From a virus (lineage: Duplodnaviria > Heunggongvirae > Uroviricota > Caudoviricetes): a DNA stretch of 64,000 bases. The DNA is taken from IMG/VR virus record IMGVR_UViG_2939521961_000004, one strand, 5' to 3'. The position numbers are program-made. Shown one piece after another: positions 12,001 to 15,000 of the stretch; the stretch's first letter is position 1; the number at the start of each line of letters is the position of its first letter.

Positions 12001-15000
12001 GTTTTCAATCAGCTATAGATAGGGCTTGGCGCCAGAATGGAGAATATTTAACGAGGAATAGAAGCTTTGTATCAGACGGGCTTCCCTAAATAGAGAAGTT
12101 AAATAATCAGGATGATGCTAATGAATATCAGGGACAAGGTGAGTGTCTTCATGTTCAGTGAAACAGGGTGTCACAAAAAAGATTGGGGGGGGCTAGAGCC
12201 TTCTGCACGAAAATAGTGATGCGACAGATCTGAGATAGCTTTGTATCCTTCTGCCTGGTTCAGGCCTGGAGCAGTCCATGTTTTACAAAAATACTCGGCA
12301 GCGTAACGTGTTGCAAGAGCGGCATCAGACGAGGAACCTGAGGTTCCGCTCATGACCGATAATCTCATCCGAATAAAAATATACCAATTGGTATACCAAG
12401 TTTATACCAAGAGCCAAAAAAGCAAAGGGGCTACCATTTGGTAACCCCTTGATTATTTGGCGGAAGCGCAGAGATTCGAACTCTGGAACCCTTTCGGGTC
12501 GCCGGTTTTCAAGACCGAAGAAAAACAAATAAAAATCAGTGCAATACGTGAAATTGCTGAAAAGTTAATCAAATTTAACACCAAGAAAAATCAAGGTATT
12601 AGGAAGTTGCTCATAGCTAGTATACCAAGTCTTTTTGCCAGAAATTTTTCTGGATTGTCTACTTGCTAACCACGAGCGGCAAATCCAGTGTTGGTGTGAT
12701 TTTTGTTTTACGATCGTAAATCAACACCTGATTTTCTGTTTTATGCCCGCTGAAAATTTGTTTGTCGCGACTGCTGCCTTCGTAATCTGAGATCCCCTTG
12801 GCTTTTATGTCGTGAAAATTGCACCCGAACGGAACGCCAACTTTTTGCTCGGCTGCGCGTTTAGCCTGATTCCACCAGTTATTCAGCGTTTTAGCTATGA
12901 CTTTCCCGCCTTTGGTTGTATTGATCACATATTCGCATGTACAGGAAGATACATTTCGGGCTAACTGGATCGCTGTACGTAATCGCGGTGACCATTCCTT
13001 GATTTGTTTGGTGCCGGTTTTGTTTTGCTCAATGTAGATCCCTTTATCCATAATATCCTGCCATTTCAACTCAAGCACATCACCGAGTCTTGCCGCACAG
13101 AGATAGGAAATCTCCATTGCAATGCGTAACTGTGGAATTGCTTCCGCATATATCGCCGCATACTGTTCATCGGTGATGTAAACAGTGCGGGCTTTAAGAG
13201 AGAATTTTCTGACTCCTTTGCATGGGTTATTCTTCACATACCCACGCTCATATCCCCACCCGTATACTCGACTCAGGCTTGCCAGTTCATGATTTGCCTG
13301 GGTCTTTGAACCGCCCCGGAAATCCTGGAGACTAAACTCCCTGAGAAAGAGGTAAACAGGATGACTAAAAATACTCGTTTTTCCCCCGAAGTCCGTCAGC
13401 GGGCGATTCGTATGGTTCTGGAAAGTCAGGATGAATATGACTCACAGTGGGCGGCAATTTGTTCCATTGCCCCAAAGATTGGCTGTACGCCGGAGACTCT
13501 GCGTGTCTGGGTTCGCCAGCATGAGCGGGATACCGGGGGCGGTGATGGTGGGCTCACCAGTGCTGAACGTCAGCGTCTGAAAGAGCTGGAACGTGAAAAT
13601 CGTGAACTGCGCCGCAGTAACGATATCCTTCGCCAGGCTTCCGCTTATTTTGCGAAGGCGGAGTTCGACCGCCTCTGGAAAAAATGATGCCACTGCTGGA
13701 TAAGCTGCGTGAGCAGTACGGGGTCGGACCGGTATGCAGCGAACTGCATATTGCCCCGTCAACGTATTACCATTGTCAGCAACAGCGACATCATCCGGAT
13801 AAACGCAGTGCCCGTGCGCAGCACGATGACTGGCTGAAGAAAGAGATACAGCGCGTATACGATGAAAATCACCAGGTATACGGTGTGCGTAAAGTCTGGC
13901 GTCAGTTGTTACGGGAAGGTATCAGAGTGGCCAGATGCACTGTGGCACGTCTCATGGCAGTTATGGGACTTGCCGGTGTTCTCCGGGGTAAAAAGGTCCG
14001 CACTACCGTCAGCCGGAAAGCCGTTGCCGCATGCGACCGCGTAAACCGTCAGTTCGTGGCAGAACGTCCAGACCAGTTGTGGGTGGCTGATTTTACCTGG
14101 GTAAGCACATGGCAGGGCTTCGTTTATGTGGCGTTCATCATTGATGTGTTCGCCGGATACATCGTGGGATGGCAGGTCTCATCATCCATGGAAACAACAT
14201 TCGTGCTGGATGCACTGGAGCAGGCGTTGTGGGCCCGTCGGCCGTCCGGCACAATCCATCACAGTGATAAAGGTTCTCAGTATGTATCGCTGGCCTACAC
14301 GCAGCGGCTTAAGGAAGCCGGATTACTGGCATCAACAGGGAGTACTGGCGACTCGTATGACAACGCGATGGCTGAGAGCATCAATGGTCTTTACAAAGCG
14401 GAGGTAATACACCGTAATAGCTGGAAAAACCGGACAGAAGTGGAACTGGCCACACTAACGTGGGTGGACTGGTATAACAATCGACGATTGCTGGAAAGGC
14501 TGGGCCATATTCCTCCGGCAGAAGCAGAAAAAGCTTATTATGCTTCCATCGGAAATAATGATCTGGCAGCCTGAGTTCACAGATAAAATACTCTCCAGGA
14601 AACCCGGGGCGGTTCACTTGCTCTCAAGCCCTCGTTTATCCATGAAAATTCTTACCTGCTCAGTTTTGACATTATCAGCAAGCACTTTTCCGAATACCAT
14701 CAGCAACGCCTTCTGATGTTGTCGATAATCTTTTTGGGTTCGGGGGGCCAGTTCTGTAAATGCAGGGGAGTCCATAAACATGTGCCATAATTTAGCTACG
14801 GTCATTATGTTGTGGAGTTTTGCTTTTTCCAGTTCATAATTTTGCCAGACTTTAGCTACGCTGGTTTTCCGCACTCTTCCTAGCCCTATACTTCTTGTAC
14901 TTCCTTCGGGTTTCCACACGTAACTGTAACCATTCGATCTAACCCGCGGTGGCAGTACATTATCTTTTTTATTTTTTCTTGGTCTTCCCATTGTTCAGCG

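Follow-up and report, generated by a model that had tools for sequence, protein, structure and literature searches.

Tandem prophages at serT and an IS629-split integrase

The window, by which we mean the whole 64-kb stretch of DNA analysed, has an E. coli O26:H11-type chromosome background and covers parts of two tandem prophages at serT. It begins inside the upstream one (prophage A) and ends about 0.5 kb short of the right boundary of the second (prophage B), whose integrase gene is split by IS629 (int::IS629). The right junction of B and the intact integrase of A lie outside the window and were read in relatives of 99.8-100% identity; no genome in the searched collection matched both window halves at 100%. 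The features of the window are as follows, and its prophage A part (1..12364) also contains an EspV pseudogene fragment.

1..12364, plus strand: right part of prophage A, tail tape measure gene through tail fibres
11103-11855, minus strand: EspF-repeat (TccP2-like) effector in prophage A
12365..12457: P arm, right end of prophage A
12458-12517, minus strand: att core, a partial tRNA-Ser made up of the 3' 60 nt of the 88-nt serT
12518..12658: P' arm, from the core to the integrase stop codon
13306..12659, minus strand: integrase C-terminal fragment, codons 125-339 plus stop, with the whole catalytic domain
13304-13306: left CTT of the target-site duplication, integrase codon 125 (AAG on the gene strand)
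13307-14616, plus strand: complete IS629 (IS3 family), 1310 bp
13361-13687, plus strand: IS629 orfA (Pfam HTH_Tnp_1)
13642-13758: ALIL frameshift pseudoknot RF01497 (Rfam, 121.5 bits versus a gathering score of 50)
13684-14574, plus strand: IS629 orfB (Pfam rve, HTH_21, rve_3)
14617-14619: right CTT of the target-site duplication
14991..14614, minus strand: integrase N-terminal fragment, a 125-aa ORF whose TGA stop comes from the first IS-end bases
15211..14969, minus strand: intact Xis-like gene, 80 aa, DUF4224, with a 23-bp overlap with the integrase start
54387..64000, plus strand: foreign right arm of prophage B, with tail tip J, lom, tail fibres and an Ant pseudogene

A preliminary description of this DNA had placed a complete 1310-bp IS629 with flanking CTT repeats in the integrase gene and a stop codon within the IS end, and both observations were borne out. 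The element is bounded at 13307 and 14616 by inverted termini (TGAACCGCCCCGG) with 13/13 terminal matches, the repeat being imperfect further in, and CTT is present on both sides; genome comparison revealed one CTT at the target site of uninterrupted alleles. Over bases 1-1310 it shares 99.8% identity with the annotated IS629 (OrfA/OrfB) of phage BP-4795 (AJ556162.1), and it has all hallmarks of the IS3 family and of IS629, namely size and inverted repeats, overlapping orfA and orfB with a -1 frameshift, and a 3-bp duplication. PGAP calls an intact transposase with programmed frameshift in identical genomes, and judged from its sequence this IS629 copy looks fully functional and active.

IS629 interrupts the minus-strand integrase gene at codon 125. 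The N-terminal fragment comprises the arm-binding domain together with a portion of the core-binding one, aligns with lambda Int from residue 1 to about 135 and is closed after 125 aa by the TGA of the IS terminus, while the C-terminal fragment is without a start of its own. Deletion of the IS and one CTT in silico joined the two pieces, as had been predicted, into a single 339-aa ORF with a PF00589 match (33.5 bits versus a cut-off of 27.1), residues 1-319 of which align with lambda Int 1-340 (E=5.6e-20). These matches identify the repaired ORF as a predicted lambda-Int-like tyrosine integrase, arm-binding domain included. In RefSeq, the equivalent C-terminal stretch is labelled as an incomplete 'tyrosine-type recombinase/integrase', next to an IS3 family transposase. 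The integrase of B itself is knocked out, and a 125-aa stub and a promoterless catalytic fragment remain.

An IS introduced by assembly error, or flanking ORFs from unrelated genes, would explain the split trivially, and to this we assign a negligible probability; no supporting evidence was found. The interrupted allele, with identical junctions, occurs in 36 independent complete genomes and is therefore not an assembly artefact. In addition, the repaired 2188-bp sequence gave one ungapped match of 99.5-100% in each of 12 complete genomes, among them the O26:H11 reference strain 11368 (NC_013361.1), which excludes chance, and the repaired protein is identical at 339/339 residues to two intact annotated integrases.

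The excisionase-like gene and the att core had likewise been described as intact, and indeed both the 80-aa ORF and the 60-nt serT core are undamaged. The description of the site as a partial tRNA-Ser fell short, however: the core is present, but it is embedded in a full P-core-P' junction between the tandem prophages. It aligns with the annotated tRNA-Ser gene serT and with attL beside yccA, and since the gene is truncated, it was called neither by ARAGORN nor by Rfam at gathering thresholds. An alignment of three sites showed attL as flank-core-P', the middle one as P-core-P' and attR as P-core followed by the remainder of serT, with a block identical across all three at 12453-12517. Window positions 12365-12517 share 99.3% identity with the stretch that lies left of the intact serT (attR) in NZ_AP027185.1, and the P' arm equals the int-proximal arm of the prophage A attL except for 1 base. 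The 60-nt core has one exact copy in the 64-kb window. The motif TATACCAA occurs five times in the 64 kb, always in att arms, with four copies in the P arm and the fifth at 12621 in P'; these are candidate arm-type Int sites. The segment 12365-12658 is a full attP-type P-core-P' junction of two tandem prophages at serT.

Integrase, excisionase and a source of Int in trans

The integrase keeps five of the six lambda catalytic residues (R212, K235, H308, R311, H333, Y342) and departs from the canonical Arg-Lys-His-Arg-His-Tyr set at the R311 position, which is Lys (FHDIK). The idea that this Arg-to-Lys change had killed the enzyme before the IS arrived was rejected: Lys occupies the position in 108/108 full-length homologues of 55-100% identity, which makes it a trait of the clade and not a sign of decay, and in vivo excision has been associated with the identical protein of Sp4. 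Lys at this position is also reported in other predicted tyrosine integrases, which are candidates for experimental validation (PMC12884075). On the basis of these alignments we treat the integrase as a member of a putative Lys-II clade of Int homologues and not as a canonical RHRY enzyme.

The Xis-like protein matches Pfam PF13986 (E=3e-8) and the PHROG excisionase family phrog_1266 (E=4e-23), and shares 79/80 residues with its counterparts in prophage A and Sakai Sp4. By profile and position, the B gene at 15211..14969 belongs to the excisionase family, with a putative role in directionality control. In the view of Asadulghani et al., the Sp4-type Xis probably does not function, although Sp4 circles were seen (PMC2669165).

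In related genomes, an intact int/xis pair of prophage A precedes the window start by about 35 kb. The A integrase and the repaired B integrase are identical at 339/339 residues, their genes differing by two synonymous bases. A predicted donor of Int in trans is thus at hand in the tandem upstream prophage as read in these relatives, and its Int would presumably be able to act in trans. Prophage A resembles Sp4 and has a tccP2-like effector. Prophage B, too, closely resembles Sp4 of O157:H7 Sakai (ECs_1055 int, ECs_1056 'excisionase', yccA|serT), with 339/339 identical Int residues and 1 synonymous base difference, the same attachment site, core and P' arm, and 79/80 Xis residues. Sp4, however, has an intact integrase and is the single prophage at its site, whereas B has its int gene split by IS629, sits second in a tandem pair and has an exchanged right arm.

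After mitomycin C, Sp4 was seen in circular form, and the prophages found to circularise did not include Sp3, Sp11 and Sp12, which have a disrupted Int (PMC2669165). B resembles this 'defective prophage pool' of O157, i.e. int-disrupted EHEC lambdoid prophages amid interacting relatives (PMC2669165), as well as the PPydfJ prophages, in which an IS has inactivated the integrase (PMC8112680). In contrast to both groups, B adjoins a tandem prophage that encodes an identical integrase and has the same att.

The N-terminal stub retains the arm-binding domain and still lies behind xis, so that, if expressed, it could compete with the Int of A at the shared TATACCAA sites and act as a dominant-negative lock. 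Such a lock is a very long shot; if true, it would stabilise both tandem prophages along with the tccP2-like effector cargo and would be reversible by IEE-mediated IS excision.

An exchanged right arm and a displaced attR

B had been described as probably unable to excise unless an integrase is supplied in trans. Its own integrase is indeed dead, and a donor can be named in prophage A, but the integrase is not all that B lacks, as its attR lies about 300 kb away in genomes collinear with the window. Compared to the serT prophage of strain NIID080884, the window is 99.65% identical up to 54386 and 94-96% identical beyond, and window positions 44000-64000 match the right arm of the Stx1a (wrbA) prophage at 99.8%. 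Going by these identities, the right arm of B from about 54.4 kb on is of the wrbA-site Stx1a prophage type and not of the espK/serT type. BLAST divergence after 54.4 kb also disqualified NZ_AP027185.1, 100% identical on a 3.5-kb query, as a stand-in for the whole window.

Of the 15 genomes that match the window best, 12 are collinear with it, and where their flank was read, B ends at ymdF. In collinear genomes, ymdF-rutG directly follows B, and a wrbA-type core (ATGGTTTCAA) lies 536 bp beyond the window end. The cognate serT attR is located about 300 kb downstream, joined to the left arm of another prophage, and was absent from the right end of B in the flanks of these collinear relatives. 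Strain 2010C_3902 exemplifies this order: yccA, prophage A, the int::IS629 prophage and ymdF-rutG up to potC; then the left arm of the potC prophage with the espK arm, followed by serT-hyaA up to wrbA; and finally the Stx1a left arm with another right arm, and potB. We infer that the genome from which the window derives has the flanks of these collinear genomes; the prophage arrangement is fluid, and this strain could differ from them. A minority arrangement exists in NIID080884 and 94_0962, both with the insertion, in which int::IS629 lies 52.6 kb from espK-serT.

These comparisons suggest, with a probability of roughly 0.8, a combination of IS knockout, a tandem donor and an arm swap that left B stranded. 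Transposition of IS629 into codon 125 split the integrase gene of a serT lambdoid prophage and duplicated CTT. Homologous recombination between the near-identical late regions of the serT, wrbA and potC prophages would have swapped their right arms, such that B would now end at the wrbA/ymdF junction, with its cognate serT attR about 300 kb away. Int and Xis could then release only prophage A, the sole one with a cognate att pair at phage distance, and B would be fixed by two independent lesions, the loss of its own Int and the lack of a cognate attR at phage distance. Because the right arm is exchanged and attR lies so far off, Int in trans would not yield a phage-sized circle; the identical integrase of the neighbour is probably unable to free B in this form, and we expect B not to excise. 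A fully makes up for the enzyme defect of B, which is limited instead by its displaced attR. A proper attL/attR pair could be regained if prophages recombined by homology.

The simpler model of the preliminary description, in which the integrase knockout is the sole block and B, with intact attL and attR, excises once a related Int is supplied, is unlikely for the window. It agrees with the intact core, P' arm and xis, with the identical Int of the tandem neighbour and with the arrangement in NIID080884 and 94_0962, but the right arm seen in the window differs from the espK/serT one, the window holds no second serT core, and the collinear genomes show ymdF and a wrbA-type core where the flank was read.

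The proposed arm swap is akin to other prophage-mediated rearrangements in STEC, in which homologous recombination in late regions reshuffles lambdoid arms and chromosome segments. Such reshuffling is reported for O157 in the available text of PMC8743559, and recombination of this kind has been noted for the late regions of O26 Stx1a phages (PMC10042803). Unlike those cases, the exchange here is a cyclic three-way one between serT, wrbA and potC, with two adjacent chromosome segments swapped and no inversion; the available text of the two papers (PMC8743559, PMC10042803) speaks of inversions and 'complicated recombinations', and the three-way configuration is not explicit there.

The knockout of the gene as such is of little importance, since it is a routine IS629 event, the pseudogene is annotated and an identical Int adjoins it. 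The decisive features, the presence of a tandem neighbour sharing this Int and the right arm exchanged with the Stx1a prophage, lie outside the coordinates of the split gene, and prophage mobility should not be judged from an integrase and one att site alone.

Distribution of the insertion and order of events

IS629 insertions in EHEC prophage genes are routine. The present one is an ordinary strain-variable, sub-lineage polymorphism, and the split integrase is a known kind of event whose pieces RefSeq already marks as pseudogenes. It conforms to the known IS629 polymorphism of EHEC in the element itself, the 3-bp duplication and the presence or absence among close strains; IS629 is treated as a source of polymorphism in EHEC in the available text of PMC3271280. 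A full-text search found no paper on this particular insertion or on the O26 serT tandem pair.

The exact empty-site alleles in close relatives, together with the seemingly fully functional IS copy, would also fit a reversible knockout, in which low-frequency excision of IS629 promoted by the IS-excision enhancer (IEE) restores the integrase and the gene serves as a switch. Excision of IS3-family elements is stimulated by IEE, which restored a lacZ carrying an IS600 insertion, and iee-carrying SpLE1-like elements are reported in O26:H11 (PMC9943667, PMC9397093). We nevertheless consider such a switch improbable: iee is absent from the 64-kb window, ancestral empty sites explain the alleles equally well, and there is no obvious selection to restore a redundant integrase.

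Regarding the order of the two lesions, IS629 may have arrived late and silently in a prophage already stranded by the arm swap, when the integrase was useless and redundant. The IS-free strains 11368 and 8479 are already swapped, with the junction to espK-serT about 300 kb away, strain 8479 is collinear with the window apart from 1313 bp that it lacks, and the identical integrase of prophage A adjoins the gene. On the other hand, IS-bearing strains with the unswapped order exist, and the IS-free alleles could be revertants that arose through the IS-excision enhancer present in O26:H11 (PMC9943667, PMC9397093); we put a late, silent arrival of IS629 at even odds. Whether a strain has the insertion, and whether its arms are swapped, could serve to mark lineages in O26:H11 epidemiology, and both states bear on the mobilisability of prophages with tccP2-like and espK effectors and of Stx1a prophage arms.

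IS629 in the integrase gene of prophage B

Sequence reading together with a script delimited an IS629 of exactly 1310 bp within the integrase gene of prophage B. It is the only IS629 copy in the 64-kb window and shares 99.8% identity, end to end, with an element of phage BP-4795 that carries the annotation IS629. These boundaries bear out the preliminary description of a complete IS629 with CTT on both sides and a stop codon inside the IS end.

IS629 and the split integrase
13307-14616, + strand: IS629, inverted termini TGAACCGCCCCGG
13304-13306 and 14617-14619: target-site CTT pair, directly outside both IS629 ends
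IS629 first ORF, + strand: 108 aa, Pfam match HTH_Tnp_1
IS629 second ORF, + strand: 296 aa, Pfam matches rve, HTH_21 and rve_3
13642-13758: IS3-type ALIL frameshift pseudoknot (Rfam, 121.5 bits)
14991..14614, - strand: integrase N-terminal ORF, 125 aa, ending at a TGA formed by the IS629 terminus
13306..12659, - strand: continuation of the integrase frame, C-terminal side of IS629

In-silico deletion of IS629 and one CTT resulted in a single 339-aa ORF, which scored above the Pfam Phage_integrase threshold and aligned to lambda Int over residues 1 to 319 (E=5.6e-20), showing that the flanking fragments join into one tyrosine recombinase. For a 3-bp repeat by itself, the chance expectation is 1/64. 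A chance or artefactual origin of the insertion was rejected, as the repaired 2188-bp sequence gave one ungapped match (99.5-100%) in 12 complete genomes, including the O26:H11 reference strain 11368 with its uninterrupted allele, and the interrupted allele was found in 36 complete genomes. RefSeq labels two incomplete integrase pieces flanking an intact IS3-family transposase. Because of the empty-site alleles, the 36 interrupted genomes and these labels, the initial observation held in all details.

In two relatives, the 2.2-kb att/int/xis stretch holds an IS600 (NZ_AP027191.1, 1257023-1260477; NZ_CP074826.1, 2026096-2030863), in one of them instead of IS629 and in the other together with it. 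IS3-family elements have thus inserted into this small stretch more than once.

The tandem att junction and a predicted integrase donor

Genome matches identified the window as part of an E. coli O26:H11-type chromosome, with the order yccA / prophage A / att / prophage B / ... / serT / hyaA in the closest genomes. Prophage A is the tandem upstream neighbour, and a TccP2-like effector and an EspV fragment form cargo at its right end. We aligned the three att sites. The yccA-side site consists of bacterial flank, core and P' arm, the serT-side site of P arm, core and the remainder of the tRNA, and the middle site (12365-12658) of P arm, core and P' arm. The middle site thus reads as an attP-like junction, as expected for two phages in tandem at one site. 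Its core had been described as a partial tRNA-Ser, which holds, but the site as a whole is a full P-core-P' tandem junction.

Features around the middle att
11103-11855, - strand: EspF-repeat (TccP2-like) effector, 250 aa, four 47-aa proline-rich repeats, Pfam EspF E=5.5e-109
about 12181-12363, - strand: EspV pseudogene fragment, beside the TccP2-like effector
12458-12517: att core, 3' 60 nt of the 88-nt serT
12380, 12388 (-), 12392, 12403 and 12621: TATACCAA octamers, all five of the 64-kb window, clustered in the two att arms (P and P'); probably bound by Int as arm-type sites

The window contains neither the intact prophage A integrase nor the right-hand junction; both were read in relatives of 99.8-100% identity. 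In NIID080884 and 2010C_3902, the prophage A integrase is intact and identical to the repaired protein at 339/339 residues, with two synonymous base differences only, and the Xis-family proteins of A and B share 79/80 residues. Related genomes thus hold a predicted trans donor for prophage B. The same 339/339 and 79/80 identities were observed for the integrase ECs_1055 and the Xis ECs_1056 of prophage Sp4 in O157 Sakai, located at yccA/serT like prophages A and B. Asadulghani and colleagues detected circular Sp4 upon mitomycin C treatment (PMC2669165) and did not name the Int-disrupted Sp3, Sp11 and Sp12 among the circularising prophages (PMC2669165). Because circular Sp4 was detected and its Int is identical to the repaired protein, this integrase type works in vivo.

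It does so although it deviates from the canonical active site at one position: the equivalent of lambda R311, which is the second catalytic arginine in tyrosine recombinases, is a lysine at residue 291 of the repaired protein (FHDIK; about 12803-12805, - strand). Each of the 108 full-length homologues that were retrieved, at 55-100% identity and from genera such as Citrobacter, Klebsiella, Salmonella, Dickeya and Sodalis, has lysine there as well, and the remaining five catalytic residues are invariant. An Arg-to-Lys substitution at this position has also been reported for further predicted tyrosine integrases, picked as candidates to be validated by experiment (PMC12884075).

Exchanged right arms and the mobility of prophage B

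Aligned with the NIID080884 serT prophage, the window is 99.65% identical as far as 54386 but only 94-96% further right, and alignment showed the ISCro1-interrupted tail fibre and espK cargo of NIID080884 to be absent from the window's right arm. Instead, 44000-64000 matched the right arm of the NIID080884 Stx1a prophage at wrbA at 99.8-99.9%. By match positions, 12 of the 15 best-matching genomes were collinear with the entire window. Full context, read in one genome (2010C_3902), was yccA / A / int::IS629 prophage / ymdF-rutG ... potD-potC, then potC-site prophage left arm with espK right arm / serT-hyaA ... wrbA, and finally Stx1a prophage left arm with a third right arm / potB. In window 39279-64000 and the loci of NZ_CP074885.1, right arms are exchanged cyclically among three lambdoid prophages (serT, wrbA Stx1a and potC) with near-identical head and tail genes. 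The exchange swaps two adjacent segments, serT-wrbA and ymdF-potC, relative to the K-12 order, and the crossover lies somewhere within 39279-54386, where both parents match. In the swapped arrangement, the Stx1a prophage has mismatched ends, a wrbA attL and a potB-side right end. In relatives, a wrbA-type core ATGGTTTCAA (compare TTGAAACSAT, PMC5592225) lies 536 bp past the window end, about 0.4 kb before ymdF.

The integrase of prophage B is disrupted and the middle att is complete. Int of prophage A, with or without Xis, would have a proper pair to act on, made up of attL on the yccA side and the middle site's P-core half, and should thereby be capable of releasing prophage A. For the core-P' half, the partner att would be about 300 kb away, and recombination with it would yield a circle carrying a large segment of backbone that runs from ymdF to potC. 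Such a circle would be a dead end because the segment includes genes that, from the K-12 map, we take to be essential. With its own Int broken and the partner att distant, we infer that prophage B is immobilised twice over. The earlier proposal of no excision unless Int is supplied in trans therefore names a necessary condition, but not a sufficient one. Int in trans would suffice in NIID080884 and 94_0962, two genomes with a minority arrangement in which int::IS629 to espK-serT spans 52.6 kb. In 94_0962, the late region equivalent to 44000-64000 is at NZ_CP074792.1 59301-79301, a separate 154,743-bp record and not the 5.47-Mb chromosome, which may reflect either excision of the segment or a split in the assembly.

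The swapped arrangement is already present in the IS-free strains 11368 and 8479, suggesting that IS629 may have landed in an integrase gene that was already stranded and redundant. However, unswapped genomes bearing IS629 exist too, and an IS-excision enhancer reported in O26:H11 can remove IS3-family elements and restore genes (PMC9943667, PMC9397093).

Precedents and further features of prophage B

The insertion involves a known element, gene and prophage type, and RefSeq already flags the pseudogene. For EHEC, integrases disrupted by IS elements and complementation between prophages are established topics (PMC2669165, PMC8112680), as are prophage-driven chromosome rearrangements (PMC8743559, PMC10042803). 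No publication that explicitly reports this insertion or the three-way swap turned up in our literature search; a specialist would be surprised by neither.

PGAP annotation of the closest genome has the Cro-side 'transcriptional regulator' of prophage B as frameshifted (about 20922-21181; equivalent to L001 23022-23281) and an ead/Ea22-like gene as truncated, further signs that prophage B is defective beyond int. The portal region comprises two overlapping ORFs (44545-45909 and 45906-47129, + strand; 454 and 407 aa), and PGAP calls the equivalent 'frameshifted' in all related prophage copies examined, including the Stx1a prophage; either a defect common to these copies or a programmed frameshift that has gone unrecognised could account for the split.

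RNA genes
18372-18423, - strand: DicF sRNA, adjoining dicB
32162-32413, + strand: three tRNA genes (ARAGORN: Met-CAU, Arg-UCG, Arg-UCU)
33183-33355, + strand: STnc100 sRNA

The first tRNA, Met-CAU according to ARAGORN, is annotated by PGAP as tRNA-Ile in relatives.
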